64,000 nucleotides of DNA, from the NCBI GenBank assembly GCA_965246885.1, contig OZ251992.1:2144001-2208000 (forward strand), given 5' to 3'. The notes under the pieces are model-generated. The model was not told where the DNA came from. It saw nothing but the letters and a program-made list of their open reading frames with translations, and did not search any database. Made by a program: the position numbers and the translations under genes. Below, in pieces: positions 16,555 to 60,452 of this stretch. The stretch comes from Abditibacterium sp. (GTDB lineage Bacteria; Armatimonadota; Abditibacteriia; Abditibacteriales; Abditibacteriaceae). Positions within the stretch are counted from its first letter, which is position 1. Each line of letters starts with the position of its first letter.

Positions 16555-16680
16555 GGCGCAGTTAATTCTTCCGTTGGCGCGTGCGCGTCATTCGGTGGCG
16601 CGGCTAATTCTTTTGTCGGCGCGTGCGCGTCACTCACCGGCGCGACCCGGCGACTCGTCGGCGCGGCCCGGTGGATGCTC
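16555..16680. repeat. Degenerate 21-bp-period tandem array (6 units, GGCGC anchor)
   Basis: GGCGC recurs at 16555, 16576, 16597, 16618, 16639 and 16660. Confidence 0.9.
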
Positions 16681-16748
16681 CGCCCGTACGAGTCGAGCGG
16701 AGCCAGAAGCAGGAAAATGGCGGCGCGTGGTTAAACTTCTCCTCTCTC

Positions 16749-17363
16749 ATGCAACCGTTCACCTCTTTGTCGGGCATCGCGGCGCCCCTTGACCGCGCCA
16801 ATGTGGACACCGATCAAATCATCCCCAAGCAGTTCCTCAAGCGCATCGAGCGCACCGGTTTTGGCGAATACCTCTTCTTCGATTGGCGCTACCTCGAAGA
16901 CGGCAAGACCCCCAACCCCGACTTTATCCTCAACGATTCGCGCTTGAAGGGCGCGCAGATTCTGGTCGCCGCGCGCAATTTTGGCAGTGGCTCCAGCCGC
17001 GAGCACGCGCCTTGGGCCTTAGACCAATACGGCTTTCGGTGCGTCATCGCCCCCTCTTTTGCCGACATTTTCTACAACAACTGCTTTCAAAACGGCCTGC
17101 TGCCGGTGATTTTGCCGGAAGACTCCGTCGCTATTTTGCTCGCCCGCATCGAGGCCAACCTCGGCATGACGCTGACCGTTGACCTTGAATCGCAAACCGT
17201 GCGCGGCGACGGCTTCGAGGCGGATTTCCAAGTAGACCAGTTCCGTAAGCACCGCATGCTCTTGGGATTAGACGACATTGGCATGACTATGCAGCACGAG
17301 GGCGACATTACCCAGTTCGAGGCGCACCGCCCCGCTTGGATGGCGTCGCTCGCGTCGGTTTAA
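16749..17363 (+). CDS. leuD: 3-isopropylmalate dehydratase small subunit
   Basis: [38 protein letters not shown]. Confidence 0.96.
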
Positions 17364-17366
17364 GCC

Positions 17367-18596
17367 TTAGACCAACAAATCGCGCGCGAACTCCAAGGCG
17401 CGGATGAAAACATCCACGTCCTCGCGGGTGTTGTAAGCGGCGAAACTGGCGCGGCAGGTGGCGGGAACTCCGAAGCGGCGCATGAGCGGCTCGGCGCAGT
17501 GGTGGCCGGTGCGGATGGCGACGCCCTGAGTGTCCACCAAGTGCCCGATGTCGTTCGGGTGGGCGCCGTCCAAAACGAAGCTCAAAACGCCCGCTTTGTG
17601 CGCCGCTTCGCCGATAATGCGGATGCCGGGAACCTCGCGGATGCGCGTGGTGGCATAGGCCAGCAGGTCAGCCTCGTGCGCGGCTATGTCGTCCATCGAG
17701 ATGGACGACACCCAGTCAATGGCGGTTCCAAAACCGGTCGCGCCCGCCATGTTGGGCGTGCCCGCCTCGAACTTATAGGGCAGTTCGTTCCACGTCGTCT
17801 CGCCCCACGACACGCTGGAAATCATGTCGCCGCCGAACTGATAGGGCGGCATCGCTTGGAGCAGTTCGCGCTTGCCGTGCAGGATGCCGATGCCCGTCGG
17901 CCCATAGATTTTGTGCGAGCTAAAGGTGAAAAAGTCGGCGTCGAGGGCGCCCAAATCAACGGGGCCATGCGGGACGGACTGCGCGCCATCCACGAGGATG
18001 GTGGTGCCATTGGCGTGCGCCATTTCGACTAACTCGGCGACGGGGTTAATGGTGCCGAGGGCATTGGACACATGAACGATGGACGCCAACTTCGTGCGCG
18101 GCGACAGCAAGCGTTGCCACTCCTCGACCATCAGTTCGCCCGCGTCGTTGACCGGCGCCACGACGAGCTTGGCGCTTCTTTCGCGGGCGAGCATTTGCCA
18201 AGGGACGATGTTGGAGTGATGCTCCATTTCCGACAGCAGAATCTCGTCGCCCGCCCCAATGTTGGCGCGTCCCCACGTCGCGGCGACGAGGTTGATGGAC
18301 TCGGTGCAACCGCGCGTGAAGATGAGTTCATGCGCGTCGGCGACATGAAGAAAGCGGGCGATTTTGACGCGCGCTTCCTCGTAGCGCCGCGTGGCGACTT
18401 CGCTCAGGTGATGCGTGGCGCGGTGCAGGTTAGCGTTTTCGGTCTCGTAGAACTCGCTCGTGCGGTCGATGACCGCGCGCGGCTTTTGCGTGGTGTTGGC
18501 GTTGTCGAGATAAACGAGCGGTTTGCCATGCACCTTGGTGGCGAGGATGGGGAACTGCGCGCGGACGGCGGCGACATCGAGGGTGGTGGTGGGCAT
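17367..18596 (-). CDS. sufS: Cysteine desulfurase, SufS family
   Basis: LVYLDNA, EHHSNIVPW, FSSHKIYGPTGIG, RTGHHCA; last gene of the suf cluster. Confidence 0.95.
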   Translation of the reverse strand: MPTTTLDVAAVRAQFPILATKVHGKPLVYLDNANTTQKPRAVIDRTSEFYETENANLHRATHHLSEVATRRYEEARVKIARFLHVADAHELIFTRGCTESINLVAATWGRANIGAGDEILLSEMEHHSNIVPWQMLARERSAKLVVAPVNDAGELMVEEWQRLLSPRTKLASIVHVSNALGTINPVAELVEMAHANGTTILVDGAQSVPHGPVDLGALDADFFTFSSHKIYGPTGIGILHGKRELLQAMPPYQFGGDMISSVSWGETTWNELPYKFEAGTPNMAGATGFGTAIDWVSSISMDDIAAHEADLLAYATTRIREVPGIRIIGEAAHKAGVLSFVLDGAHPNDIGHLVDTQGVAIRTGHHCAEPLMRRFGVPATCRASFAAYNTREDVDVFIRALEFARDLLV

Positions 18597-18626
18597 GAGT
18601 GGGTTCCTGCTGGCAACTATGGCTTC

Positions 18627-18696
18627 CGTAGGGACGCAGCTTGCCGCGTCCGTCGGGTCACGATTTGGAACGGACGCGGCAAGCAGCGTCCCTACG
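18627..18696. repeat. GTAG-family REP doublet (REPIN-like inverted repeat)
   Basis: 27-bp arms CGTAGGGACGCAGCTTGCCGCGTCCGT and ACGGACGCGGCAAGCAGCGTCCCTACG (one mismatch) with a 16-nt spacer. Confidence 0.8.
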
Positions 18697-18701
18697 TTGG
18701 T

Positions 18702-20018
18702 TTACAGCGCCGCCGACAAACGCGCTTCCATTTCGTCGCGCACGGTCTCGGAGGAGATGTTTCCGAGCGCCTCGCCCGCGAAAGCGCGGATGAGGATGGC
18801 GCGCGCTTCCCTTGCCGGGACGCCGCGCGACTGGAGGTAGAACTGCGCGGCCTCGTCGAGTTGGCCAATCGTCGCGCCGTGCGTGCACCGCACGTCATCG
18901 GCGAGGATTTCCAATTGCGGCTTGGCGTTGATGGTCGCGTCGGGCGACAGCAAAATGGTGCGGTTGGACTGCTTCGCGTCGGTCTTTTGCGCGTCCAGAC
19001 GCACGAAGATTTTGCCGTTGAAAACGCCGACGGACTTGCCGTTCAAGACGTGCGCGTAGTGCTCATGGCTGGCGCAATGCGGCACGGCGTGATCCATCGT
19101 GGTGTGGTTGTCTATGTGCTGCTCGCCATCGGCGACGACTAAGCCGTCGAGGGTGATTTCGGCGCCCTCGCCCTGCATAACCGCCGTCGCGTTGTTGCGA
19201 ACGATGCGCCCGCCGAGGTTAAGCGTCGTCGAGCGCAGGTTCGCACCCCGCGCCGCGCCTAATTGCACGCTCCCAATATGGAAGGCGCGCGGCGATTCGA
19301 GTTGCACCTTGAGATGCTCTAACTGCGCGCCCGCGCCCGATTCGACTTCGGTCACCGCATTGGTGAAGTAGGCGCCGTCACCGGAGGAGCAGTAACTCTC
19401 AATGAGGGTGAGTTTCGCGTTCGCGCCTAAGAGGACGAGGTTGCGCGGGTGGGAGACGGTCGCCGCGTCGCCGATGGAAACGAAGACCAAGTGCACGGGC
19501 GCCGCAAGTTCGACGTTAGCGGGCACGAACACGAACGCGCCGTCCTGCGCGAAGGCGGTGTTGAGCGCGACGAAGGTTTCCTCGCCGTCAACCGAGCGCC
19601 CGAACGCTTGCTGCACGCGCTCCGAATCGGCGGCGATGGCTTCGCTCAGGGCGCGCACTTCGACGCCTGCGGGGAGTTCGCCGATGCGCGAGAACATGGG
19701 TTCAAAGTGGCCGTTGACGAAGACCAAGCGCGGCCCGTCCAATCCCACGAACGGCAGCGAACCCAAATTGTCCTCGCTGTCGGCTGCTTCAAAGCGGAAG
19801 ATGGGCGTCGCCACGAGGTTAGCGACGGGCGTCACGTCGGTGTATTTCCACTCCTCGTCGCGCACGGTGGGGAAGCCCAAGCGCGCGAAGGTCGCCATCG
19901 CGTCGCGGCGGCGCGCGGCGAGCCAATGCGGGGCGGGATGTTCGCGCTCGAACTGCTCGAAGGCGCCTTGGTAACGCGCGACGGCACCGGCGGTGGGGTT
20001 GGTTAGGATTCGGGACAT
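18702..20018 (-). CDS. sufD: Fe-S cluster assembly protein SufD
   Basis: EEWKYT, GVFNGKIFV, AQKTDAKQ, KPQLEILADDVRCTHGATIG. Confidence 0.95.
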   Translation of the reverse strand: MSRILTNPTAGAVARYQGAFEQFEREHPAPHWLAARRRDAMATFARLGFPTVRDEEWKYTDVTPVANLVATPIFRFEAADSEDNLGSLPFVGLDGPRLVFVNGHFEPMFSRIGELPAGVEVRALSEAIAADSERVQQAFGRSVDGEETFVALNTAFAQDGAFVFVPANVELAAPVHLVFVSIGDAATVSHPRNLVLLGANAKLTLIESYCSSGDGAYFTNAVTEVESGAGAQLEHLKVQLESPRAFHIGSVQLGAARGANLRSTTLNLGGRIVRNNATAVMQGEGAEITLDGLVVADGEQHIDNHTTMDHAVPHCASHEHYAHVLNGKSVGVFNGKIFVRLDAQKTDAKQSNRTILLSPDATINAKPQLEILADDVRCTHGATIGQLDEAAQFYLQSRGVPAREARAILIRAFAGEALGNISSETVRDEMEARLSAAL

Positions 20019-20777
20019 TTAAACCTCCGCGAACTGCGCCTTGATGGGGTCGTAGCCGCCCGCTTCCAATTCGAGCGCCAGTTCTTTGCCGCCACTGCGC
20101 ACGATTTGGCCGCGATACAGAATGTGCACGAAGTCCGGCACGATGTAGTCGAGCAGGCGCTGATAGTGCGTGATGACGACGGTCGCCGTCGTGGGCGACT
20201 TTAACGCGTTGACGCCGCCCGCCACCACTTTCAAGGCGTCTATATCCAGCCCGGAGTCCGTCTCGTCCAGCACTGACAGGAGCGGCTCCAAGAGCGCCAT
20301 TTGGAAAATCTCCGACTTCTTCTTTTCCCCGCCTGAAAAGCCCTCGTTCACCGACCGCTTGAGGAACTGCTCGTCCAAGTTCACCAACTTCGACTTCGCC
20401 TTGACCAGCTTGAGGAACGACAGGGCGTCCAACTCCGGCAGCCCCTTGTATTTGCGAATCCCGTTGAGCGCCGCGCGCAGAAAGACCTGCGTGTTGACGC
20501 CCGGTATCTCGATGGGATACTGAAAGGCGAGGAACAACCCTTCCGCCGCGCGCTCTTCGGGCGCCAGATCAAAGAGGTTCTGGCCGTTGAACAGCACCTC
20601 GCCGTCCGTTATCTCGTAGTCGTCGCGCCCCGCCAAGACCGACGCGAGCGTGGATTTGCCCGACCCGTTCGGCCCCATGACCGCGTGCACTTCGCCTGCG
20701 CCGACCGATAAATTGATGCCGCGCAGGATTTCTTTGTCCTCGATGCGCGCGTGTAGGTTCTTAATTTCTAAAAGCAT
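20019..20777 (-). CDS. sufC: Fe-S cluster assembly ATPase SufC
   Basis: GPNGSGKST, AFQYPIEIPGV, NEGFSGGEKK, LDETDSGLDIDAL. Confidence 0.97.
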   Translation of the reverse strand: MLLEIKNLHARIEDKEILRGINLSVGAGEVHAVMGPNGSGKSTLASVLAGRDDYEITDGEVLFNGQNLFDLAPEERAAEGLFLAFQYPIEIPGVNTQVFLRAALNGIRKYKGLPELDALSFLKLVKAKSKLVNLDEQFLKRSVNEGFSGGEKKKSEIFQMALLEPLLSVLDETDSGLDIDALKVVAGGVNALKSPTTATVVITHYQRLLDYIVPDFVHILYRGQIVRSGGKELALELEAGGYDPIKAQFAEV

Positions 20778-20795
20778 GATGGGTGGTTCCGACGT

Positions 20796-22241
20796 TTAGC
20801 CGACGCTCCCTTCCAACGAGATGCCCAATAACTTCTGCGCTTCGACGGCGAACTCCATTGGTAGCTCGCGGAAGACCTCTTTGCAAAAGCCGTTGACGAT
20901 CATCGAAACGGCGTCTTCCGTCGAGATGCCGCGCTGATTGCAATAGAAGATTTGGTCTTCCCCGACTTTCGAGGTGGACGCTTCGTGCTCCACTTTCGCC
21001 GTCGGGTTGCGCACCTCGATATACGGGAAGGTATGGGCGCCGCACCGGTCGCCAATGAGGAGCGAGTCGCACTGCGAGAAGTTGCGCGCGTTGTCGGCGC
21101 CCTTGAGCACCTTGACCAGCCCGCGATACGAGTTCTGGCCGCGCCCCGCCGAAATGCCCTTGGAAACAATCGTCGAGCGCGTGTTCTTGCCGATGTGAAT
21201 CATCTTCGTCCCTGTATCGGCCAACTGCGCGTTATTGGTAACGGCGACCGAGTAGAACTCGCCGACGGAGTTATCGCCTTGCAAGATGACGCCGGGATAC
21301 TTCCACGTGATCGCGCTCCCCGTCTCGACCTGCGTCCACGAAATCTTGCTGGACTCGCCCCGGCAGGCGCCGCGCTTGGTGACGAAGTTATAGATACCGC
21401 CTTTGCCGTTCGCGTCGCCGGGATACCAGTTCTGGACGGTGGAATACTTGATGCTCGCCCGCTCCAGCGCGACCAACTCCACGACCGCCGCATGCAGTTG
21501 GTTGGTGTCGAACTTGGGCGCGGTGCAACCTTCGAGGTAGGACACCTGCGCGTCGTCCTCGCAGACAATGAGCGTCCTCTCGAACTGCCCGGAATCCTGC
21601 GTGTTGATGCGGAAGTACGTCGAGAGTTCCATCGGGCACTTCACGCCTTTGGGAATGAACACGAACGAGCCATCCGAAAACACGGCGGAGTTGAGCGCCG
21701 TGAAGTAGTTGTCGGTATGAGGAACGACCGACCCCAAATACTGCCGCACGAGTTCGGGATGCTCGCGCACGGCATCGGAGAACGAGCAAAAGATGATGCC
21801 CAGTTCCGACAGCTTCGCTTTAAACGTCGTCGTAACCGAAACCGAATCGAACACGACATCCACCGCGACGTTAGCAAGGAGCTTCTGCTCTTCCAAGGGG
21901 ATGCCCAGCTTGTTGAAGGTTTCGACGAGCTTCGGGTCTACCTCGTCCATCGAGGCCAACTTGGGCTTTTCTTTGGGCGCGGAGTAGTAGATAATGTTCT
22001 GGTAGTCCAGTTCGGGGTAGTGCGCGTTGAGCCAGTGCGGTTCTGCGAGCGTCGTCCAATGGCGGTAGGCTTTGAGGCGCCAGTCGAGAAGCCACGCCGG
22101 TTCGCCCTTTTTCAGCGAGATGGCGCGCACCACGTCCTCGGACAGGCCGCGCGCAAAGGAATCGGACTCGATGTCGGTAACAAATCCGGCGGTGTATTCT
22201 TGCGAAGCGAGCGCTTCGATGGTCGGTGTTTCGGTGCTCAT
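20796..22241 (-). CDS. sufB: Fe-S cluster assembly protein SufB
   Basis: [49 protein letters not shown]. Start at ATG 22241 (MSTETP). Confidence 0.97.
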
Positions 22242-22403
22242 AACGACTCGATGGGCTTTGGGAAGCTGCACACAGAGGTTTCCCAAACGGTGCCTTACAC
22301 CCGACACAAACGAAGCGAGACGGTTCCCGCGCCGCCCACAATTCTCCTATTCATTTCGTCGGAATTGACTCTAAAGATGAAACTGCGCCGCTCAAAGACG
22401 GCA

Positions 22404-22430
22404 GAAGCCGGAACAGAATGTTCCGGCTTC
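22404..22430 (-). terminator. Hairpin downstream of the response regulator gene
   Basis: 12-bp stem GAAGCCGGAACA/TGTTCCGGCTTC just after the minus-strand stop at 22446. Confidence 0.6.
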
Positions 22431-22445
22431 CAACAAACCAAACGC

Positions 22446-22820
22446 TTACGCTGCCTTTGCTTCCAAATGGCGCTCCTGCCGCTCCAAGTCGTGCACCAGC
22501 ACCTCATGGAGGTGCGTTACGTCAATGGGTTTGGGCATGAAGTGCTCGGCGATGCCGTCGGCGATATCGAGGTCGAGGGCGCTGGTTAAAATAACAAGCG
22601 GCGCGTGCGGCATTTTGCGGGCGCGCGCGGCCAGTTCGACGCCGCTCATGCCGGGCATGCGCACGTCGGAAATCAAAAACGCGAACTCCTCGCGCCGCAA
22701 CAAAGAAAGCGCCTGCCACCCGCTCTGAGCTACCGTCACGGTATGGCCTTGACGTCGAAGAGCGATCGCCAACGTCAGCAAAACGTTGGTGTCGTCATCT
22801 ACTAAAAGGATTTGGGCCAT
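22446..22820 (-). CDS. Single-domain response regulator (CheY-like)
   Basis: ILLVDDD, ISDVRMPGMSG (phospho-Asp), LTS, KP. Start at ATG 22820. Confidence 0.9.
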   Translation of the reverse strand: MAQILLVDDDTNVLLTLAIALRRQGHTVTVAQSGWQALSLLRREEFAFLISDVRMPGMSGVELAARARKMPHAPLVILTSALDLDIADGIAEHFMPKPIDVTHLHEVLVHDLERQERHLEAKAA

Positions 22821-22909
22821 TGCAAATATCACCGCGCACCCGGTCGGTACGCTATGAGAGGCAACGCAAATCAAGTGCCGAGCCGTATCCAAAGTTTCCG
22901 CAGCTACTT

Positions 22910-23449
22910 TTAAGTCCAAAAGCGGCGCCATAAGCGTTGCCATCGGAGGGGCTGGCACCCAGTCGCGCGGCGCTGGCGATTCCATAAACGCACCTGCGCC
23001 CGCAGTTGCGGTTTCATCGGCAGGCCCGCGTAGACCGCATGAACATGTTCGGCACCTTTCCAATGCGGCCCTGTGCGAAACCACGCTATAAAGCCCGCGT
23101 GCGCCAAATCTTCGAGAAACTCGGCGCGCTTACGGGGTGTCAGGTCGTCCACTCCCAAGTCCACCGCCGCACTGTAATCCTCGCCGCCAACCGTGCCGTC
23201 ACGCAGGTGGTACCCCTTTGAACGCGGGTTATTCCCAAGCGTCTGGCCAATGCGAATCGGGCTAATGCCCGCCGCAAAACACGCCCCCCTGAACGCCCGC
23301 CATGCGACGGGCGCCATCCCTGTGGGCCGCTCAAACGGACGCGCGAGGTGGCGCGGCGGCAGAAGTACCCCGACGCGGTAACTGCGCCACCCCCAAAACG
23401 CCACGAGTGCGGCCAGAAGCAGGCAGGAAAAGAGCAAAAAGCGGCGCAC
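22910..23449 (-). CDS. Membrane-anchored hypothetical protein, possible Zn peptidase (M15/LAS-like)
   Basis: N-terminal TM, then GYH...AAVDL...EHVHAV. GTG start at 23449 is assumed. Confidence 0.6.
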   Translation of the reverse strand: MRRFLLFSCLLLAALVAFWGWRSYRVGVLLPPRHLARPFERPTGMAPVAWRAFRGACFAAGISPIRIGQTLGNNPRSKGYHLRDGTVGGEDYSAAVDLGVDDLTPRKRAEFLEDLAHAGFIAWFRTGPHWKGAEHVHAVYAGLPMKPQLRAQVRLWNRQRRATGCQPLRWQRLWRRFWT

Positions 23450-23495
23450 CCGAACAGTTAGACCGCGCGGCGTAAACTGCGACAACCTAATCGCC

Positions 23496-24749: not shown

Positions 24750-24769
24750 AATCCCCGGCCCGCCGTCGT

Positions 24770-24916
24770 CTGTCGCCGAGCGCCAGACGGGCGCCAACGA
24801 GTGACAGACATGCGCCACTCGCCGCCAGCCGTGCGCCAACCAGTGACAGACGTGCGCCACTCGCCCACACAGGCGCGCCGACGAGTGACGCGCGTCTGTC
24901 GGCCATTGGCGGACGA
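24770..24916. repeat. Degenerate 21-bp-period tandem array (7 units, 42-bp higher order)
   Basis: GCGCC at 24791, 24812, 24833, 24854 and 24875; flanking in-register units start CTGTCG at 24770 and 24896. Confidence 0.9.
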
Positions 24917-25214
24917 CGGCGCTCGCGTGGGCGACCTCCCCCAGTCATCCCTCGAATTCGCCATTCCGCAAAAAGGAGAATTTGTGCCAATTTTAATGAG
25001 AATCGGTTAGAGCAGTAGTGCGCGGATTCGCCGGAAAACGTCCGCAAAAGTAGTAAGATGATGAATGTCCTTCCACGCAGGCGACCGCAAAGAACTACCC
25101 CCGGCAAGGCCGGAGGCACGGCGACACAGGGAAGGGGCCGCCGCTCGAAACGATGCGCAAAGCAACGCGCCGTCTGGTGGAGCGTGGCCAAGGTAATGAA
25201 AGGACAAAACTCTC

Positions 25215-27035: not shown

Positions 27036-27044
27036 GGCATCATT

Positions 27045-28750: not shown

Positions 28751-28783
28751 GGGCACGCGGTTCGCTTAACTACAGGAAAGACT

Positions 28784-29623: not shown

Positions 29624-29659
29624 TGGGCAAGCGTCCTCACCCCATAAACTCCCCCTCCA

Positions 29660-30723: not shown

Positions 30724-30810
30724 CTGGCGCCCGCGCCCTGTGCGCCCGCACGCCCCGTTGTGGCTAAAATAGTTCTGGTGTAAATCCGTCCGTCCCGCGT
30801 CTTTTCAATC

Positions 30811-31569: not shown

Positions 31570-31585
31570 TTCTTCCGCGCAAGCG

Positions 31586-36597: not shown

Positions 36598-36615
36598 GGT
36601 CGGAGTTTGCGAAAG

Positions 36616-36769
36616 AGAGGGCGGCGACGCGATGGGAGACGTCTATCACCAAATCCCAGACGTCTGGGACTGCTCGGCGGACGTCCGCCATCGCGTCGCC
36701 GCCCTCTGGGACTCGGCGACAGACGTCTGGGACTCGGCGACAGACGTCTGGGACTCGGTTACAGACGTC
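36616..36769. repeat. Degenerate 21-bp-period array (GACGTC anchor) with nested inverted repeats
   Basis: GACGTC at 36638, 36659, 36680, 36722, 36743 and 36764; perfect 20-bp inverted repeat 36616-36635/36688-36707. Confidence 0.9.
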
Positions 36770-50727: not shown

Positions 50728-50760
50728 GATGAGACCTGTGAAGACAACGGTGGGCGCGGC

Positions 50761-51549: not shown

Positions 51550-51752
51550 AAAAAAGAGCGCGCGCCCCACCGCGCGCGGCGCGCAAGCCGCCTCGATTTT
51601 ATCCGCTTTGGAGCAGTTTGGCAACGGTTTTTTCGCGTTTTCTTTGAAAGAAGAAGCTGAGTTTTTTCCTCTTGATGATGACTTGACACTGCGGCGTCGT
51701 GTGGATATAGGCCCGATGGCGGCGCACGAATGGCGCAAGGCGGCGATGCGAT

Positions 51753-51890
51753 GACAGACCTCTATTGAGCGGTGGCAGGGGTCTGTTGGCCAATGGCAGA
51801 GGTCTGGGAATTGGTGACAGACCCCTGCCGGCCAGTGACAGACGTCCGCCGAGCGATGACGCGCCCGCGCCGAGCGGCCACAGACGTCTC
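51753..51890. repeat. Degenerate 21-bp-period array (GACAGAC/GGCAG anchor, 6-7 units)
   Basis: Units start at 51753, 51774, 51795, 51816, 51837, 51858 and 51879. Confidence 0.85.
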
Positions 51891-51926
51891 TTCTCCTCCG
51901 GCGGGCGGGCTTTTACACTTTCCGCC

Positions 51927-53669
51927 ATGAATCCCAATTCAACCGAACTCGAAAACTCCCCGGCCCACCGCAAATACTCGCGCATCGTCGTGGAAGGCGC
52001 CGACCGCGCCGCTTCGCGCGCCATGTATCACGCCCTCGGCTGGACGCCCGACGACTTCGGGAAGTCGCAAGTGGGCATCGCTTCGACGTGGAACATGGTG
52101 ACTCCGTGCAACATGCACATTGACAAGCTCGCCCTTGAAGCCGCGCGCGGCGCCGACGAAGCGGGCGGCAAGGCCGTCATCTTCAACACCATCGGCATTT
52201 CTGACGGCATCTCGATGGGCACCGAAGGCATGAAATACTCCCTTGTGTCGCGCGAGGTCATCGCCGATTCCATCGAGTGCGTCGTCGGCTGCGAAGGATA
52301 CGACGGCGTCGTGGCCATCGGCGGCTGCGACAAGAACATGCCCGGTTGCTTGATTGGTCTGGCCCGCCTCAATCGGCCATCGGTCTTCGTGTATGGCGGC
52401 ACCATTTTGCCGGGTTGCTTGACGGGCGGCGCATGCGACCTCGACGACCCCACGCAACAGAAAATAGACCTTGTATCGGTTTTCGAGGCCGTTGGGGGGC
52501 ACGCGGCGGGCAACGTTTCGGACGATGAACTGCGCGAAATCGAGCAACGCGCCATCCCCGGCGCCGGGTCGTGCGGCGGCATGTACACCGCCAACACAAT
52601 GGCCAGCGCCATCGAAGCGATGGGAATGTCCCTCCCCGGCTCCAGCGCGCAGATCGCCGTTTCGCCCGCCAAAAAGAGCGACTGCGAGCGCGCGGGCGCG
52701 GCTGTTATGCACCTCATCGCCCGCGACATTAAGCCGCGCGACATTATGACCCGCGAAGCGTTCGAGAACGCCATCACCGTCGTTATTGCACTTGGCGGCT
52801 CGACCAACGCCGTTTTGCACCTGCTCGCTATGGCGCACGCGGCGGAAGTGCCGCTTTCGATTCACGACTTTTCCGCTATCGGCAAGCGCACTCCCGTTTT
52901 GGCCGACTTGAAGCCCTCCGGCAAGTATTCGATGGCCGAACTGTCGCGCGTCGGCGGCATCCAGCCGTTGATGAAGCGCCTTCTCGCGCAGGGCTTGTTG
53001 CACGGCGACTGCCTGACCGTCACGGGTCGCACCGTCGCGGAGAATTTGGCGGAAGTCGCCGACTACGACGAGAAGCAGTCCATCATCCACGACTTTTCCG
53101 ACCCCATCAAGCCCGATTCGCACATCGTTATCTTCGGCGGCAACCTCGCACCGGGCGGCGCCGTCGGCAAGATTTCTGGCAAAGAAGGGCTGTCCTTCAC
53201 GGGCCGCGCGCGCGTGTTCGAGGGTGAGGAACACTGCCTCTGTTCTATATTAGACGGCACCGTCGTCGCGGGCGACGTGTTGGTCATCCGAGGCGAAGGG
53301 CCAAGAGGCGGGCCGGGGATGCGCGAGATGCTCTCGCCAACGAGCGCCGTCATGGGCAAGGGGTTGGGCAAGACCGTCGCGCTTATCACCGATGGCAGAT
53401 TTAGCGGCGGCAGTCACGGCTTCGTTGTCGGCCACATCACGCCCGAAGCCTTCGAGGGCGGCCCGATTGCCCTTATCCACGACGGCGACGAAATCTCCAT
53501 CAACGCGCAGTCCCGCGAACTCAGTCTCCACATCCCCGCCGAGGAGTTGGCCAAGCGTGCCGCCGCGTGGCAAAAGCCCGCCCCCCACTACCGGCGCGGC
53601 TTGTTGGCAAAGTATGCCGCGCAAGTCACCAGCGCCAGCTTGGGCGCGGTAACTGACTTGGGGTTGTAA
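51927..53669 (+). CDS. ilvD: Dihydroxy-acid dehydratase
   Basis: [54 protein letters not shown]. Start at ATG 51927. Confidence 0.97.
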
Positions 53670-53709
53670 ACAAAGCAGCATGCCACGCAAGTGGCGCACG
53701 TTCCAATAT

Positions 53710-54237
53710 ATGCAGATACAATACGAACTCACGCCCGCCGATATAATGGCGTCTCAGTCGCTCTTCCAGTGGCGCCGCTCTCGTCTGGTCAGTTGGGGAC
53801 TTACGCTCTATGGCGTCCTGTTTTTTCTTTGGGGGCTGTTGATGCTTATTGCTGGCTCGCTTTCGCTGGCCGTAGTGCCTTTGATTCTTGGAACGTTTGC
53901 GGCTACTTTTATGCCGGTGATTATGCCGCGCCTTCTCCTGAAGAACTGGAGCAAAGCGCGCAAACCGAATGGGCCAACAACTCTATCCACTTCGCCCGAT
54001 GGTGTAGAGATTAGCCACTCGCTTGCGCGCCTTTCGATGAAATGGGAGATGTTTATTGACGTTCTCGAAGGCCCAACTCTTTGGCTCTTGTTTATACAGC
54101 CTCAATTCTATTATGTCATTCCCAAGCGCGCCTTCGCGTCAGTAGCCGATCAAGACCTGTTCCGCACCGATCTGTTGCACATTGAGGCGGCGAAGCAAAC
54201 CGCGAGTGCGCCGTCACCGCCCCTTTCGGTGCCTTAA
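53710..54237 (+). CDS. YcxB-like membrane protein
   Basis: Two TM segments, then W...YVIPKRAF C-terminal motif. Confidence 0.75.
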   Translation: MQIQYELTPADIMASQSLFQWRRSRLVSWGLTLYGVLFFLWGLLMLIAGSLSLAVVPLILGTFAATFMPVIMPRLLLKNWSKARKPNGPTTLSTSPDGVEISHSLARLSMKWEMFIDVLEGPTLWLLFIQPQFYYVIPKRAFASVADQDLFRTDLLHIEAAKQTASAPSPPLSVP

Positions 54238-54623
54238 TCTCCCTCCAACACCACCACTGCCGCCGCTATGCCACCGTCGTGGGTGATGGAGAGCAGCACG
54301 TTCGAGACGCCGCGTCTGCCTGCAATTTGCGCGGCGACGCCGATAATGCGCAGGGTGGGGCAGCCGTTTGGGGCGCGGACGACTTCGAAATCTTTCCACG
54401 TCACGCCGTCGGTAAAGCCGGTGCCCAAGGCTTTACTGGCGGCTTCTTTGGCGGCGAGGCGGCCCGCGACGTGGTTGGCTTTGGCTCCGGGGTGAGAGTA
54501 TTTGGCGGCTTCGAGGGTTTCGGCATGTGTGCAGATGCGCGCGAGGAAGCGGTCGCCGTGCCGCTCGATGTTGGTGGCGACGCGGTCAACGCGGGCGATG
54601 TCGAGGCCCAGTCCGATGACCAC
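54234..54623 (-). CDS. acpS: Holo-[acyl-carrier-protein] synthase
   Basis: GLGLDI, GRLAAKEAASKALGTG, LSITHD. Confidence 0.93.
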   Translation of the reverse strand: MVIGLGLDIARVDRVATNIERHGDRFLARICTHAETLEAAKYSHPGAKANHVAGRLAAKEAASKALGTGFTDGVTWKDFEVVRAPNGCPTLRIIGVAAQIAGRRGVSNVLLSITHDGGIAAAVVVLEGD

Positions 54624-55115
54624 TTAGCTTTGCCCCGCGAAAGCGCGCACGTCGTCTTCGCTGAGCACTTTGCCGGGGAAGCGCGCGGCGACGAGTTCGA
54701 GGTCTACGCCCGCATCCTTGGCGGCGCGGCGCGCGGCGGGGGTGGCGCGCAGGCGGGTGGAAGTGGCGGCGGGAGTGCCGTTATCTTCCAGTCGGGCGGG
54801 CTGGGAGTGGGGGGAAGTGGGAACAGAGACCGCGCTTGTCAAGGCCGCGTTCTCTCCTGACACATCGGGCACCGCTTCGTCTGCCTCGCCAACGAGCGCG
54901 AGGATGAACCCAACGGGGACGACGGCTTTTTCGGGGGCGACGAGTTGGCGGACGGTTCCGGCGCTCTCGGCGGGGAGTTCGAGGTTGGTCTTTTCGGTGA
55001 TAAGTTCGCAGAGCGGCGTGCCGACCGAAACGGCATCGCCCTCGCGCACCAGCCAGCGCCCGACGGTGGCCTCTTCCATGTTCTCGAACAAGCGGGGGAG
55101 AGCGATTTTTTGCAC
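54624..55115 (-). CDS. Stand-alone lipoyl domain + E3-binding domain protein
   Basis: W…EGDAV…CELITEKTNLELPA lipoyl domain, linker, ATPAARRAAK…G…EDDV peripheral subunit-binding domain; no catalytic domain. Confidence 0.85.
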   Translation of the reverse strand: MQKIALPRLFENMEEATVGRWLVREGDAVSVGTPLCELITEKTNLELPAESAGTVRQLVAPEKAVVPVGFILALVGEADEAVPDVSGENAALTSAVSVPTSPHSQPARLEDNGTPAATSTRLRATPAARRAAKDAGVDLELVAARFPGKVLSEDDVRAFAGQS

Positions 55116-55139
55116 GGCCCCAGTTTATACTCGCTTCCC

Positions 55140-55979
55140 ATGCCCATCCCCCTCCCTTTTGCCATTGAGGACGCCCTTGCCATTGCGCGCGAAGCGGGCG
55201 CCCTCGCCCTCGCCATGAAAAGCACGGCGCGCGTCGAACTCAAAGATGACGCCACCCTCGTCACCGAAGCCGACCGCGCCGTTGAGCGGCTCCTGCACGC
55301 GAAGCTCGGCGACCTCGCGCCGGGGTGGAGCTTTCTGGGGGAAGAAACCGGCATGAGCGGCGACCCCTCCGCGCCCTCGTGGGTGATTGACCCCATTGAC
55401 GGCACCACCAACTACGCGCGCGGTATTCCGACGTGGTGCGTGTCCATCGGCGCCGTCGCCGAGGGCCAGCCCATCTTCGGCGCCTTGTGCGTGCCGGAAC
55501 TGGGAGAACTGTTTTGGGCCGCGCCCGGACAAGGCGCGTGGAAAATCAAGGGCGGCGCCACCACGCGTTTGCACGTGCGCGACGCTTTGCCCTTGGCCCA
55601 AGAAGACCCCATTGCAGGTAACACCACCGTCGAACGCATCCTCGATTTTGGCGACGTGCCCAACCGCTTGCGCAATTTCGGCTCGCTCGCCTACCACTTG
55701 ACCCTGCTCGCGCAAGGCTCGCTCGTCGCCAACATCGCGCACTATCACAAGCTCTATGACGTGGCCGCCGGACTTTGCCTGTGCTTCGAGGCGGGCTGCG
55801 AAGCGCGCTACATGGATGGCTCCGTGTGGCACGCGCGCGTTTCCACCCACAGCGAGACCACCCCCATGCTGTGCGCGCCGCCCCAAACGTTGGAGTTCCT
55901 GCTCCGCAACCTGCACTTGAAAGCCATCCCCGAAGTCTCATCGGAAGAAGCCGACAACAAGGGCATGGCCGTTGATTAG
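55140..55979 (+). CDS. Inositol monophosphatase family protein
   Basis: VTEAD, GEE, WVIDPIDGTTNY, YDVAAG. Start at ATG 55140. Confidence 0.9.
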   Translation: MPIPLPFAIEDALAIAREAGALALAMKSTARVELKDDATLVTEADRAVERLLHAKLGDLAPGWSFLGEETGMSGDPSAPSWVIDPIDGTTNYARGIPTWCVSIGAVAEGQPIFGALCVPELGELFWAAPGQGAWKIKGGATTRLHVRDALPLAQEDPIAGNTTVERILDFGDVPNRLRNFGSLAYHLTLLAQGSLVANIAHYHKLYDVAAGLCLCFEAGCEARYMDGSVWHARVSTHSETTPMLCAPPQTLEFLLRNLHLKAIPEVSSEEADNKGMAVD

Positions 55980-56000
55980 TCGGGCACACTACACACCCAC

Positions 56001-56291
56001 ATGATTCACCACATGGTTTGGTTCAAGCTGCGCGAGGACATCGCGCCCACCGATAAAGAGTTCCTGCGCGCCCAACTGACCGGCCTGACCGAGCAAATTC
56101 CTCAGATCGTCGAACTGGCGTGCGGCGAGGATTTCTCCGAACGCTCGCGCGGCTTCGGCTGGGGGTTGTACGTGCGCTTCGCGTCGAAAGAGGACGGGCA
56201 AATCTACGACAAGCACCCCGAACATCAAGCCTTCATCGCGCGCTGCAAGCACTTGTGGAGCGACGTGCAGGCGCTCGACTTCGAGGGCTGA
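56001..56291 (+). CDS. Dabb (stress-responsive A/B barrel) family protein
   Basis: IHHMVWFK, IPQI, YDKHPEH, DF motifs. Confidence 0.88.
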   Translation: MIHHMVWFKLREDIAPTDKEFLRAQLTGLTEQIPQIVELACGEDFSERSRGFGWGLYVRFASKEDGQIYDKHPEHQAFIARCKHLWSDVQALDFEG

Positions 56292-56297
56292 GGCGCT

Positions 56298-57581
56298 TCA
56301 CACCACGTCCAGCGTTAGCACCCAGTCAATTCCCTCTTCGGGTGGGGTGAACTCCCGCCAACCGGACGGGGCGACCGAGTCAAAGGCGTGCGACTGGCCG
56401 GTGCGCGGGTCGAACCAACCGGCGCGCGCCCTGCCGCTTAGGACGCTCGTATCTACTTCGATGGGTTGCGATGCGGGGAAGTAGACGAGGGCGAAGCTGC
56501 CCTTGGCGTCGCGGCTGGCGCGGATTGTGTCGGAGCCTTCGCCCAAGTCGCCGCGCAGAATGGCTTGGGCGGGCACGCGGGAGAAGAAGGCGCGGCTTTC
56601 GAGCAACTGTCGGACGTGCCCCATCTGGAAGGCGCCGGGTAAATCGAGGGCCTGGCGCCATGTGCGGCGACTGCCAAAGCCGTCGAAGACGCCCTTCTTG
56701 TCGCATTGAAAGACGGAATTGGCGCCGTAGGTGTGCCCGCAAGCGCCCGCGAAGAGGGCGATGTAGGCGGCTTTGCGGGCATCGAGGTCGTCAAAGTAGC
56801 CGTTGGCTTTGTCCCACTTGTCCGGCTCGGCCCAGTTCCACGCGATGGGGTGGTCTTCGTAGCGCGGCTCGCCGTCGAGCACGGGCTTGACTGGGATGCG
56901 CGCGTAATCTGCTTCGATGAGCGGGGCGTTGGAGATTTCCGGGCGAGAGTGCCCGCTTTGCTGCATGTGAAAGTCCACCCACGCCTCGTCGGAGAAGTAT
57001 TTCGAGGACGAGTAGGGGCCGGGCGGGTGGAAGGATTGCAACTGCGCGCCGCCACCAGCCTTCAAACCGGCGGACAGGGCACGGATGGTGGCCCTGTGCT
57101 CGTCGGTTTCGACGTGCCGGTCGCCGCCCAACACCCAAAAGAGCGGTGTGCCTCGGAAATAGTCGCCGAGCCACTGGCCGTAAACTCCGGCGTTGTCGGG
57201 AGTAAAAACTTGCGGGCCAATGCCGCCATCCACGCGCCACTTGTCGCCCCATGTCGGCAAAAGCGCAATGGTAATGCCGCGCTTGCCAGCCTCTCCGCAC
57301 ACCCACAGGACGTGCGCCCAAAATGCGGGGTTAGGGCGCGTCGGGTCGAGATCGAAAAGCGGCAATTCGCCGTCGGCGTTGCCCACGCGCAATCCGTCAA
57401 ACTCGGAAATGCCGACCATTTGCGCGACCGTAAAGCCTTTGGCCGCGCGGTCGTCGAGATAGTCGAGCGTTTCGGCTTTGTCCAAGCGTTGCGGCACGGC
57501 CCATGCCGTATCGCCAAGCCAAAAGAACGGCGAGCCGTCGGCGTGGGCCAAGAAGCGGCGGTTAGCGGAGAGTTGAAACAT
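56298..57581 (-). CDS. DUF4038 / GH140 (apiosidase-like) glycoside hydrolase
   Basis: PFFWLGDTAW, LPTWG, WVLGGD, QSGH, DGEPRYE, GHTYG and C-terminal WFDPRTG…DWVL. Confidence 0.88.
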   Translation of the reverse strand: MFQLSANRRFLAHADGSPFFWLGDTAWAVPQRLDKAETLDYLDDRAAKGFTVAQMVGISEFDGLRVGNADGELPLFDLDPTRPNPAFWAHVLWVCGEAGKRGITIALLPTWGDKWRVDGGIGPQVFTPDNAGVYGQWLGDYFRGTPLFWVLGGDRHVETDEHRATIRALSAGLKAGGGAQLQSFHPPGPYSSSKYFSDEAWVDFHMQQSGHSRPEISNAPLIEADYARIPVKPVLDGEPRYEDHPIAWNWAEPDKWDKANGYFDDLDARKAAYIALFAGACGHTYGANSVFQCDKKGVFDGFGSRRTWRQALDLPGAFQMGHVRQLLESRAFFSRVPAQAILRGDLGEGSDTIRASRDAKGSFALVYFPASQPIEVDTSVLSGRARAGWFDPRTGQSHAFDSVAPSGWREFTPPEEGIDWVLTLDVV

Positions 57582-57614
57582 TCAATTGCGAGGCGTGCAG
57601 TGTGCCCGTCTGCT

Positions 57615-58895
57615 TCACTCCGACGCGACGGCGGCGCGCTTGCGAGAAGGCGTATCTACATGATGCGCCTGCGACTTGAAGACACGGTGCGGCTCGACGT
57701 GGACAACAGGGCAAATCACTGGGTGCAAGCGGCGCAAGAGGAAGTTGACGAGGCCGTTGTGGTGCTTGATGAAGAGGGACAAGCGGAAACCTTGGACGCC
57801 CAAGCGACTCTTGAACTTGTAGGAGGTCTGGCCGGTGGAAACGTGCGACACGCCGCGCTCGCACGCGAGGGCAATGGCGGGGTAGATCAGGTTAAAGTAG
57901 ACGTTGTAGTCGTCGTTGACGGCGTAATCCACGCCGGTATAGAGGTCTTGCACGCCAGCGCGGGTTTCCATGAGAAGCTCGATGCCGACCAGCCTGCCGG
58001 TTGCTTTTTCGCGTGCGGTGACGAGGCGGGCGCACTCGCAATCGCCCAAAGCGCGGAAGAACGCGGGGGTAAGCTCCTCGAAAGTGGCTTCGGCGCGGGC
58101 CAGCACTTGCGAATACAGGGCGTGCGCTTCTTCGGCGAGGTGGCCAAAGTTCGTCTCGACGCGAATATCAAGGCTGGTGGAGCGCTCTTGGTCGTCGCGC
58201 ACGGCGCGACGATAGAGCTTACGCATGGCGCCGGTGTAGTCGTCCAAGGAGTGCCAGTCTTGCTCGATGTCAATGCGCGTTCCGGGAAGAGAAGCGGCTT
58301 GCACGAAGCCGGAAGTTCGCAAGGCGGGGCCGAACTGAGTGACGGACTCGTCGGGCAGTTCAAAGAACAAACGCAAGCCGGGGCCAGACAAGCCCTCGAC
58401 GGCCTCGACGAGTTGGCGGGCGACTTTCTCGCGTTCGGCGCCTTCCAATTGGGGTGCAAGGGCGAGGTTGGGGCGGCAGTTGGTGATGATGGGGCCGCAG
58501 GTATGAGCACGCAAGATGCCCAGACGCTTCATCGGCCCTTTGCGAACGCGCGCGGCCCACTGTTTGAGCGAAGGCGCGGCCAAAGTCAGCAGGTCAATCT
58601 CGCTTTGAAACACGACCGCGACGCCTGCGATGCGCCCTTGATGGGAAACGGCGAGGTAGCGCGGACGCTTCATCATGCCGGACGACTGGGCGGCGAAGAG
58701 GAAGTCGTGGCGCAGTTGCGGCTCTTCTTCGGGCAATGCCGCGTTCCACTCCTGCGCGTCGAACGCAAGAATGGAATCGCACACTTGGAGGGACGAAGCG
58801 CCTTCCGATAGAGTACGCTCAGAATCGGTCAAGGCCGTATTCACCCCGTAGTCGAGCGGCAAGGAGGGCAACGGCAACGAGGAGTGACGGGTCAT
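57615..58895 (-). CDS. GNAT / FemAB-like acyltransferase
   Basis: MRKLYRR, FEELTPAFF, YTGVDY…VYFNL, GQTSYKFKSRLG C-terminal GNAT motifs. Confidence 0.8.
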   Translation of the reverse strand: MTRHSSLPLPSLPLDYGVNTALTDSERTLSEGASSLQVCDSILAFDAQEWNAALPEEEPQLRHDFLFAAQSSGMMKRPRYLAVSHQGRIAGVAVVFQSEIDLLTLAAPSLKQWAARVRKGPMKRLGILRAHTCGPIITNCRPNLALAPQLEGAEREKVARQLVEAVEGLSGPGLRLFFELPDESVTQFGPALRTSGFVQAASLPGTRIDIEQDWHSLDDYTGAMRKLYRRAVRDDQERSTSLDIRVETNFGHLAEEAHALYSQVLARAEATFEELTPAFFRALGDCECARLVTAREKATGRLVGIELLMETRAGVQDLYTGVDYAVNDDYNVYFNLIYPAIALACERGVSHVSTGQTSYKFKSRLGVQGFRLSLFIKHHNGLVNFLLRRLHPVICPVVHVEPHRVFKSQAHHVDTPSRKRAAVASE

Positions 58896-59017
58896 AAGGC
58901 AAGCGCAGAAGCGGAGAATTTGGACGTAGGTTTAACATGCGAGATTCGCGTGTTAAGGGATATTAAGAGCATCCTCATAAGCCCTTCACAATGAAACACA
59001 CAGCGCTCGGTAGTATT

Positions 59018-59953
59018 TCACCCGGCAAACGCCCGCCACAGCGCGATGTTAGTCGCCTCATTGCGACGAAGTTCCGCTTCCGAGGGCGTGCGCGGGGCCG
59101 GATGGTCGGCGCGCGAAACTGCCCGAAACAAGAAGTTGCGCGGCTGCCCGCCGCTCCACTCACCGGTCACGTCCGCGCCCACAATCACCTTCTCGGCGCG
59201 AATCGCTTCGATGGCCGCGCACACGTCGGGCAACGCCAATTCCCCCGCATCCCAGTTGGAAATGGCGCTTTCTGGGCGCAGGCAATCCTTATCGAGAGAG
59301 ATGTAGACTGAGCGCGTCGGCAGACGCGCCAGCACGTCCGTCAATATCGCGTCCCACCCCGCCGCCGCAATCGTTTTCCAACGAAGCCACACTCCCTTTT
59401 GCTTTGCTCCCGACGTCAGAGTGCGCGCCCGCACCGTTGGCCACAGCGACCGCGCCAGCGTCGCCGGGTAAATCTCCAACCGTCCACTGAGAAGCGCCGC
59501 GCGGTTGCCGCGCCATAGTTGCGCGCCGCCCAAATCCTCCTTGCCCGCGCCCAACACCACGATGCGCTCGACGTGGGGCAACCGGAGCGCCGCGTTGACC
59601 CACGTTCCGCAACAGGGCCAAGGCGAAGTTGTGTCCCAATCGGGATGCTGGTCGAAGACGATCACACTCAGCGGTTCACGGTGAAATTTCAAAAGCGAAA
59701 ACGTCAGATGGTGGAAGTCGCCCGACCCGTAAAACGTGAGGCGGTGTTTATGTTCTGGGGCCGACTGCTGCGCCAAGCGGTGCTCGAAACTCGCGCGCCT
59801 TTGGACGCGGCAGAGGTAGCGCAAGTGTGGCCCAAGCGCTGCGAAAGACGTGGTGTGGGCACCCGAAACGGATAAGAACTCGCGCTGGCGAGAAAGCGAG
59901 CCATCCAAATCCAAAACGCGTGGCTGGGGCGAAAACGGCGAACTAAGCGGCAT
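59018..59953 (-). CDS. Arginase/ureohydrolase-fold protein
   Basis: GSGDFHH, FDQHPD, YISLDKD, GADVTGE metal-ligand motifs. Start at ATG 59953. Confidence 0.8.
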   Translation of the reverse strand: MPLSSPFSPQPRVLDLDGSLSRQREFLSVSGAHTTSFAALGPHLRYLCRVQRRASFEHRLAQQSAPEHKHRLTFYGSGDFHHLTFSLLKFHREPLSVIVFDQHPDWDTTSPWPCCGTWVNAALRLPHVERIVVLGAGKEDLGGAQLWRGNRAALLSGRLEIYPATLARSLWPTVRARTLTSGAKQKGVWLRWKTIAAAGWDAILTDVLARLPTRSVYISLDKDCLRPESAISNWDAGELALPDVCAAIEAIRAEKVIVGADVTGEWSGGQPRNFLFRAVSRADHPAPRTPSEAELRRNEATNIALWRAFAG

Positions 59954-60016
59954 GGGAGGAGCGAAAGAGGCCAATACAGCGTAACCTTTGCGGTGCCCGC
60001 GCGTTCCGCTTAGCCC

Positions 60017-60313
60017 ATGCCCGCCCTGATTTCCCCCGCGTATCTCGAAGCCGCGCGCGTCCTTGCGCTGTCGTCGAGCCTGATTGTCACCATCGGCTCC
60101 TACGATCAAGTCTGGAGGATTTGGCGCTCGAAAAGCGTGCGCGATATTTCGCCGAGCCTTGTCTATCTATCGGGAGTCAACGAAGTGACATGGCTCAACT
60201 ACGGTTTCGCGCTCCAAGAGTGGCCCATGATTCTGGTGGGCGTCATCAACTTCCCGGCGTGCGTGTTGGCGATTTGGGGCTACCTCAAATTCCGCGAGCG
60301 GAAGAAAGAATGA
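60017..60313 (+). CDS. SemiSWEET / PQ-loop family transporter
   Basis: Three TMs; Q…KSVRDIS, WLNYG, PMI…N motifs (PQ reads DQ here). Confidence 0.72.
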   Translation: MPALISPAYLEAARVLALSSSLIVTIGSYDQVWRIWRSKSVRDISPSLVYLSGVNEVTWLNYGFALQEWPMILVGVINFPACVLAIWGYLKFRERKKE

Positions 60314-60368
60314 CGGCGGCGGGCGATTCCCAGAAGTGGGCGGGCAGAATAATTAACTAACTGACGCC

Positions 60369-60452
60369 AGAATTAACTGCGCCATCGGCAAAATAATGCG
60401 CGCCGCCGGAAGAATTATACGCGCCGCCGGGAGAATTAGGTGGGGCGACCGG
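60369..60452. repeat. Degenerate 21-bp-period array (AGAATTA…GCGCC, 4 units)
   Basis: A(G/A)AAT(T/A)A at 60369, 60390, 60411 and 60432. Confidence 0.8.

Follow-up and report, generated by a model that had tools for sequence, protein, structure and literature searches.

REPINs with RAYT, the small dispersed repeats of cyanobacteria and the Rickettsia palindromic elements are short and dispersed, some of them palindromic and some lying in frame in proteins. They occur singly or as doublets and have a conserved sequence, unlike the arrays described here, which are degenerate tandem arrays with one period across unrelated families. In type III toxin-antitoxin and TIGR-Tas loci, a tandem array with locus-specific sequence lies directly 5' of one small gene.

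The closest described systems are the bacterial satellites of Subirana and Messeguer, which are non-coding and of constant size, either 20-21 nt or 52 nt; 20-21-nt satellites are published for a bacillus order (PMC8161180). In the portion of that paper available to us, a polymerising protein is proposed, no cognate protein is named, and the constant length of unrelated satellites is posed as an open question. The BrickBuilt MITE minisatellite of Porphyromonas gingivalis is also a dispersed intergenic tandem array, with a 23-nt unit; as far as the available text describes it, it is one family of 19 copies with a leader, a tail and inverted ends, and is always intergenic (PMC4596501).

The arrays of Abditibacterium sp. 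resemble the satellites of the accessible account in their fixed period with variable sequence, patchy taxonomic spread, length of two helical turns and several species-specific families per genome; short conserved words with their reverse are stated there for the 52-nt class (PMC8161180). They differ from that account in being strictly 21 bp (zero at 20), in the shuffling of half-units, in replacement inside genes and in a linked helical+FN3 gene family. Unlike BrickBuilt as described (PMC4596501), they form about 30 families, lack common ends and are in some cases genic.

Five arrays in a 64-kb window

The window, a 64-kb stretch of contig OZ251992.1, contains five arrays at the places reported in a preliminary description made from the sequence alone (Table 1). 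The top lags in each were 21, 42 and 63, with a lag-21 identity of 0.55-0.70, and Tandem Repeats Finder missed the array at 51.8 kb but assigned the other four a period of 21 or 42. The 3' neighbours also agreed with that description for leuD, the OmpA-domain gene, tgt, ilvD and cfa. It had further claimed that the arrays are related, which was borne out: the 15-mers at 16555 and 60369 are exact reverse complements of each other, the remaining shared motifs were seen in the sequence, and the longest common words reached 13-15 nt in 4 of 10 array pairs versus at least 13 nt in 3 of 400 control intergenic pairs.

Table 1 Arrays with a 21-bp period in the 64-kb window
Array	Position	Strand	Units	Location
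1	16555..16680	.	~6; 42-bp A/B alternation (AATTA/GGCGCG type)	Between + gene and leuD
2	24752..24916	.	~7 (GACAGAC/GCGCC type)	Directly 3' of stop codon; OmpA-domain gene downstream
3	36615..36769	.	~7; palindromic GACGTC core	Gap separating araC-type gene (divergent) from tgt
4	51748..51890	.	~6-7 (GACAGAC type)	ilvD downstream
5	60365..60453	.	~4 (AATTA type, inverted vs 16.6-kb array)	cfa downstream

Arrays 4 and 5 were present without differences in contigs from two sequencing runs of one study (possibly including the source sample itself), and therefore are not assembly artefacts. No variant or inverted form of either was seen in these contigs, which lose rare variants. No array was present at 22 tgt loci of relatives, the site of array 3 in the window, with a different gene order in those inspected, and the gap corresponding to array 5 in a relative of ~85% identity held 256 other letters. 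An Rfam search of the window returned tRNAs only.

A genome-wide set with a strict period

Autocorrelation across contig C1 gave 271 clusters at lag 21 versus 0-1 at lags 19, 20, 22 and 23. A stricter filter retained 232 arrays at lag 21 in the genome (G000) and none at lags 20 and 22, in agreement with the predicted genome-wide element with many copies; intergenic arrays at lag 18 or 24 were far fewer. Median array length was 133 bp and the total ~1% of the genome (35 kb). The density of ~65 per Mb comes from our own detector and is not comparable with the counts of Subirana and Messeguer. The spread along the chromosome was even (12-21 arrays per 250 kb), and 202 of the 232 arrays were a single segment with the register kept.

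The set fits the constant-size 20-21-nt satellite class as the available text of PMC8161180 defines it. It comprises 232 arrays of constant period, in keeping with tandem arrays of at least four units, and several families of the same length occur in one genome: the 211 merged intergenic arrays fell into 30 communities. The three largest families, 154 arrays, are the types present in the window. Sequence is species-specific, the main motif having 29 matches in G000 and none in 26 genomes of the same bacterial family. The arrays are mostly non-coding (191 intergenic, 41 inside genes) with short conserved words as cores. The main motif was also absent from viral contigs, and a plasmid comparison gave no match. 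The idea of a genome-wide element was right, but the class of dispersed constant-size satellites, itself still without an explanation, had already been published (PMC8161180).

Position relative to genes

Arrays were described as lying upstream of genes, but this position is not special, as the share of gaps with an array is 16-18% whatever the orientation of the flanking genes (four classes, p=0.97). Their median distance is 22 bp from stop codons and 102 bp from starts, and in co-oriented gaps the array is closer to the upstream stop in 88 of 124 cases. Neighbouring genes are unrelated to each other; when paralogues were clustered, no gene family with several copies emerged next to arrays, the partner genes being singletons. 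In all four array-containing genes that were aligned with orthologues, the array stands where the orthologues carry other sequence, a resident linker having been replaced. In empty-site comparisons with orthologues 61-82% identical, replacement was seen with no visible target duplication, at junctions below base resolution.

Symmetric units and copying between loci

The units are dyad-symmetric (family profile dyad r=0.88), and linkage is low across both dyad axes, indicating that half-units assort independently. Conservation is periodic at 21 and 10.5 bp, which upholds the two-turn helical register suggested for the unit. Two other suggestions were not supported: the arrays have no 3-nt periodicity of the kind a heptad-coding reservoir would have, and complementarity between unit halves is not above chance (0.9% vs 0.7%), contrary to a structured RNA. 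Selection for hairpins was rejected on this same comparison.

Sequence is widely shared between loci. A 16-mer is common to another locus in 174 of the 232 arrays and a 21-mer in 68, one copy of 324 bp has 92% identity to another array, and 29 of the 41 genic arrays have 13-mers in common with intergenic arrays. Common ends were absent in flank BLAST of 57 small-family arrays and in array-to-array BLAST. The arrays are continuous 21-mers from a common vocabulary, as opposed to the conserved repeats and unique spacers of CRISPR, and genome-wide they likewise lack REP or simple VNTR architecture, both as first described.

A helical+FN3 gene family is linked to arrays

A search for a gene linked to arrays, as had been suggested, led to a small helical+FN3 gene family whose members nearly always have their own 21/41/42-bp array just upstream. 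This is the case in G000, and in G019 for all three close and all six divergent family members. Among 18 metagenome loci, of which four had no upstream DNA and were left out, every one of the 14 with at least 330 bp upstream had an array (12 at 21 bp, 2 at 41 bp), as did nine of nine full-length genes in a Planctomycetota sample, a count that leaves out four partial matches. Each gene-linked array has its own sequence. The link is tight and holds across phyla; as exceptions, the gene of G591 has no array, and the three genes of G241 have arrays that are weak or unassembled. In a literature search of open-access scope this link was not described, and a helical+FN3 family tied to constant-period arrays is likely new here. 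No family member was present among 41 viral candidates.

Some orphan arrays are sisters of gene-linked ones. The FN3-linked array of G000 has one sister array, and another array, at C1:346270, carries two FN3 3'-end remnants. A second array-linked gene, of an orphan family, lies at C1:525622-526317, and its array has 13-mers in common with three orphan arrays, one of them inside a gene. Two of nine orphans in G019 match that genome's own gene-linked arrays, and one fits an array of another genome better. No linked gene was found for the three largest families. In a homologue search with P0001, it matched itself alone among 771 candidates.

The protein consists of a helix (residues 38-93) and an FN3 domain, the latter being the only part matched in fold searches. 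It is predicted to form an antiparallel two-fold rod dimer about one unit long. The homodimer score was 0.72 versus 0.00 for the best control, passing a mark that 20 of 30 homodimers of solved structure also attained, against 1 of 23 monomers, and the runs agreed in at least 82% of contacts with pLDDT of at least 87. At 1.5 Å per residue the 56-residue helix would measure ~84 Å, against 71 Å for the unit. Net positive charge is absent (-3 to +1 in the helical part), and the family has no invariant catalytic residues and no nuclease-like residues or fold.

Array load and gene presence across genomes

Of 28 genomes from the order, three had a full-length gene match. Within the bacterial family, both genomes with an intact gene are full of orphan arrays, at 6.5 arrays per 100 kb in G000 and 6.1 in G019 (8 in 131 kb, one gene-linked), a correlation that consists of two positive genomes and concerns the helical+FN3 gene only. 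G008, in which the gene is interrupted by a stop, had 0 arrays in 77 kb. Relatives lacking a full-length match, 21 in all, had 2 in ~1.1 Mb, and 80 unrelated tgt loci of distant taxa, a negative baseline, had 0 in 518 kb. The gene alone is not sufficient for orphan arrays. Gene-bearing genomes without orphans included G241 (0 in 71 kb), G352 (0 in 80 kb), G591 (0 in 78 kb) and G446 (0 in 60 kb), and gene-bearing G299 had one in 100 kb. The family profile had no match in 301 genomes of that bacillus order, taken together whether or not they carry arrays. A reverse-transcriptase origin was rejected, PF00078 being absent from array-rich G019 (93% complete) and present in array-poor G012 and G008.

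Origin of the arrays and alternative explanations

The explanation that we prefer, tentatively and at a little short of an even chance, is a dispersed satellite that began at helical+FN3-linked arrays and spreads by recombination, its period held by the predicted rod dimer. It draws on the 232 arrays, their dyad units, half-unit assortment, genic replacement, the gene link and the sisterhood of some orphans. The arrays would likely have originated 5' of the small partner genes and likely spread by recombination into tolerated sites. Recombination or patch-repair copying may take place between symmetric arrays in either orientation, so that the register would be kept while 10-bp halves shuffle, and purifying selection may then spare copies 3' of stop codons and in protein linkers. 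The period is probably held by the partner's predicted two-fold dimer, whose helix could serve as a ruler for about one unit, directly or via another factor. A difficulty is that ~30 sequence families would all depend on just one or two proteins. The earlier ideas of a phased protein and of a non-autonomous element remain the leading ones.

Subirana and Messeguer, in the text available, propose a nucleoid-organising protein that polymerises every two helical turns (PMC8161180), which would make the arrays selected functional sites and not, for the most part, copies that are tolerated. The even chromosomal spread without promoter bias, the 21- and 10.5-bp periodicity, the unbroken register and the predicted symmetric dimer are what such sites would have, but congeners live without arrays, the ~30 families are unrelated, copies have overwritten coding linkers and the partner protein is not basic, and we consider this proposal unlikely. 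The gene-linked array could instead be an RNA cut to 21/42-nt units that partners the protein, in the manner of a type III toxin-antitoxin system, with orphans as escaped copies. A locus-specific tandem array just 5' of one small gene in several phyla is consistent with this, as is a mild folding excess (median z -1.45 in 40 of the 232 arrays). However, only the gene-linked arrays have this placement, the units are degenerate and strand-symmetric, half-units pair at the chance level and, unlike in type III toxin-antitoxin and TIGR-Tas loci, conserved pairing and a nuclease or RNA-guided fold are absent, the place of a ribonuclease toxin being taken by a helix and FN3 domain; such an origin is thus distinctly unlikely. 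It is also quite improbable that a Y1 (IS200-like) transposase or another element mobilises the arrays as REPIN/MITE-like non-autonomous transposons, as most arrays have no flanks or ends in common and the genic cases are replacements lacking visible target duplication. This possibility arises from a Y1_Tnp gene with ~140-bp palindromes on both sides that lies directly 3' of the FN3 gene, from the sister array, which also adjoins such a palindrome, and from the 324-bp copy; the palindromes, however, belong to a family distinct from the arrays.

It is very improbable, and already largely refuted, that the arrays are minisatellites grown by local slippage or the decayed remains of heptad-peptide genes, whose period would reflect the seven codons in 21 nt. 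In favour, near-perfect local expansion is seen in some arrays, an open frame with a 3-4 hydrophobic pattern runs through several, and stop codons number 1092 against 1262 in a column-shuffle null that does not preserve dinucleotides (173 against 290 in gene-linked arrays). Against this, period-3 power is absent in four array sets (z -0.4, +0.5, -1.9 and -2.1), sequence is common across loci, and lags of 20 and 22 (none) and of 18 and 24 (few) are not comparably represented. There is equally little reason to expect phased operators of a transcription regulator for downstream genes. Dyad units in helical phase suit operators, and this may hold for the gene-linked arrays, but orphans are as frequent in convergent as in divergent gaps, co-oriented arrays mostly lie closer to the upstream stop, and others are inside genes or beside unrelated ones.

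Our preferred reading of a spreading satellite has a broader form, in which the fixed period of bacterial satellites would be set by a ruler missing until now, the helical+FN3 superfamily; we regard this as possible but doubtful. The rod dimer would pair or hold DNA in 21-bp register, so that recombination between cognate arrays would proceed whatever their relative orientation, with 10-bp halves being shuffled and other sites overwritten. If true, this would be protein-defined, sequence-free selfish DNA with no transposase, rewriting protein linkers with heptad inserts. The genome supplies a concrete candidate for the proposed but unnamed period-setting protein, and a natural contrast is provided by relatives in which the gene is intact, broken or missing. 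The arrays also contribute to change in protein linkers, as many proteins have taken them up in frame; in a GMC oxidoreductase, 38 array-encoded residues stand in place of 19 in its orthologues.

Arrays with a 21-bp period recur across the genome

The five arrays exist where the preliminary description placed them, beside leuD, an OmpA-domain gene, tgt, ilvD and cfa, and the top lags in each are 21, 42 and 63. The reverse-complement 15-mer pair claimed between two of them is exact, and words of 13-15 nt found in more than one array exceed those of control intergenic pairs (3 of 400 controls reach 13). Arrays 4 and 5, upstream of ilvD and cfa, showed zero differences relative to contigs from two runs of one study. 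The only Rfam matches in the window were four tRNAs.

Many copies genome-wide had been predicted, and the source genome (G000; 3.555 Mb, 62.5% GC) bore this out, with 271 lag-21 clusters on its contig C1 compared to 0-1 at lags 19, 20, 22 and 23. A strict filter, under which lag 21 must outscore every other lag, retained 232 arrays (0 at lags 20 and 22), which are evenly distributed and total 35 kb, with a median of 133 bp. By our own gene model, 191 are intergenic and 41 lie within confident genes. Arrays fill 16-18% of gaps whichever of the four gene orientations is considered (p=0.97), and their median distance is 22 bp to stop codons versus 102 bp to starts. Given this lack of orientation bias and closeness to stops, placement fits survival at harmless sites rather than promoter control.

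Thirty sequence communities account for the 211 merged intergenic arrays, the largest communities having 66, 47, 41 and 12 members. A 16-mer is common to another locus in 174 of the 232 arrays and a 21-mer in 68, while 29 of the 41 genic arrays have 13-mers in common with intergenic ones. In all four genes aligned to congeners, the array replaces resident sequence, being longer than the stretch replaced in two and about as long or shorter in the other two. These genes showed no visible target duplication, though their orthologues have diverged too far for junctions to be placed. Common flanks are absent from most arrays.

Features of the source genome and the window
Feature	Coordinates	Description
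P0001 gene	C1:1335829-1336473	214 residues; single copy
Second array-linked gene	C1:525622-526317	Unnamed family
Aligned array-bearing genes		GMC oxidoreductase; urea-carboxylase-like protein; TatC; invasin-D3 protein
FN3-remnant region	C1:345600-348430	Array at C1:346270; 873-bp repeat
Match to 873-bp repeat	C1:2652805-2653676	99.5% identical
169-bp stretch with array	C1:668013-668181 and 672899-673067	100% identical; 4.9 kb apart, direct orientation
Family 3 units (examples)	C1:308837, 378404, 533089	Shine-Dalgarno-like GGAGG, ATG often next
IS200-like Y1 transposase gene (PF01797)	C1:1334913-1335783 (L132:4913-5783)	Between two ~140-bp palindromes
Reverse-transcriptase gene (PF00078)	C1:1313165-1314604	Long charged N-terminus; ends three-gene minus-strand cluster
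tRNA cluster	window:10159-10653	Phe, Asp, Val, Val
Internal duplication in amylase-family gene	window:12734-13242	264 bp

Array units are built from combinatorially assorted halves

Unit family profiles are dyad-symmetric (r=0.88 in the largest family, 0.79 pooled), with linkage high inside 10-nt halves and low across either axis. Matches between the halves of one unit are no more frequent than chance (0.9% vs 0.7%), so half-units assort combinatorially and hairpin selection is not the cause. Conservation has power at 21 and 10.5 in four array sets. The proposed heptad coding is not supported, as none of these sets has period-3 power; the 3-4 hydrophobic pattern of some array translations is the outcome expected of 10.5-bp phasing. 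Stop codons are fewer than under a column-shuffle null that ignores dinucleotide bias, which counts against a non-coding reading. Outside arrays, the genome avoids GACGTC, which forms the dyad core of the largest family (observed/expected 0.38, the strongest avoidance among nine hexamers tested); such avoidance is common for restriction or methylation sites. The GGAGG of family 3 units lies mostly in the same sense as flanking genes.

Arrays adjoin genes of a helical-FN3 protein family

The suggested search for an array-linked gene succeeded, with an array 74 bp upstream of the gene for P0001, a helical protein with an FN3 domain. Its relatives have their own arrays, unrelated in sequence. In the same-order relative G019 these accompany 3/3 close and 6/6 divergent members, with periods of 21, 41 and 42. 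Of 18 metagenome loci, 4 were dropped for want of sufficient upstream sequence and the other 14 all have arrays, as do 9/9 full-length genes of a Planctomycetota sample and the genes of three further genomes, G299, G352 and G446. The G591 gene has no array, and the three G241 genes have weak or unassembled ones. Other helical genes downstream of arrays, in G019 and at 2/5 further Planctomycetota arrays, are candidate relatives. In G019 (L237, L238, L239, L241), members of 310-313 residues pair with 41-42-bp arrays and most members of 207-220 residues with 21-bp arrays; three shorter members, one of 198 residues and two of 237, are exceptions in having periods of 41-42 bp. Several members (L140, L142, L144, L145, L146, L150) are extended N-terminally by ~30 residues that contain spaced aromatic-Asp motifs.

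The second array-linked gene has weak kinship to P0001 (E 0.003-0.05). Three orphans (arrays without a linked partner gene) are sisters of its array, one of the three being genic; the P0001-linked array has one sister. Another array is accompanied by two FN3 3'-end remnants, which are duplicated with a similar stretch downstream of each; the 3' end of FN3 is a possible integration site. The region also holds small gene pairs of toxin-antitoxin type, PIN- and RelE-like, labelled by eye.

The P0001 model (mean pLDDT 81.9) has helices at 15-31, 38-93 and 99-104 plus the FN3 domain, and fold searches returned matches covering FN3 alone. Invariant residues of the family look structural. The predicted homodimer scored 0.72 against 0.00 for the best control; the mark for this score was attained by 20 of the 30 solved homodimers and by one of the 23 monomers. 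Runs gave at least 82% contact agreement and pLDDT of at least 87, and predicted contacts of residue 51 with 75/79 and of residue 58 with 68/72 indicate an antiparallel dimer. Such a two-fold rod of ~84 Å would agree with the 71-Å dyad unit in symmetry and roughly in size.

Carrying the partner gene is not sufficient for array load

A full-length gene match was found in 3/28 genomes of the order. Array density per 100 kb is 6.5 in G000 and 6.1 in G019, which belong to different genera. The relative G008, whose gene contains a stop, has 0 arrays in 77 kb, and 21 other relatives (five sampled at only 4 kb) gave 2 matches in about 1.1 Mb, one being a heptamer-built simple repeat. Thus, the gene looks close to necessary for array load in this family. 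Orphans were absent from 60-80 kb of each of the gene-bearing genomes G241, G352, G591 and G446, with a single one in 100 kb of G299. In five Planctomycetota genomes, 140 kb held 5 arrays, a sample with no matched negatives. The three biggest G000 array families have no linked gene found, and a search of 301 bacillus-order genomes with the partner-family profile gave 0 matches. The gene is thus not sufficient, and its near-necessity is claimed for this family only, not for the published satellite cases.

Origin of the arrays

Orphans have all four testable features of constant-size 20-21-nt satellites as described in two papers, which propose a polymerising protein of unknown identity or a transposition mechanism (PMC8161180; PMC6749651). 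BrickBuilt, a P. gingivalis MITE minisatellite, differs in having ends and a single family (PMC4596501). The arrays thus belong to a known satellite kind, and the array-FN3 link, for which the accessible literature yielded no paper, is the new element. A named candidate protein makes the published question of constant satellite length testable.

Our tentative reading, somewhat short of an even chance, is that arrays would originate and keep register next to partner genes, that their symmetry would permit recombination in both orientations and so shuffle halves, and that in some lineages copies would replace other sites and remain where tolerated. Selected nucleoid sites are a rather unlikely alternative; the 21- and 10.5-bp periodicity speaks for them and the near-zero net charge of the family proteins, which makes direct DNA coating less likely, against. 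An RNA array, in favour of which there is a mild folding excess (median z -1.45 in a sample of 40/232), is unlikely. Movement by a transposase is improbable, even though a Y1 transposase gene adjoins the P0001 gene, and both slippage or peptides and operators are very improbable. A reverse-transcriptase origin is unlikely because no such gene was found in G019; G000 itself encodes one. Palindromes like those flanking the Y1 gene are numerous genome-wide and fall into several REPIN-like families.
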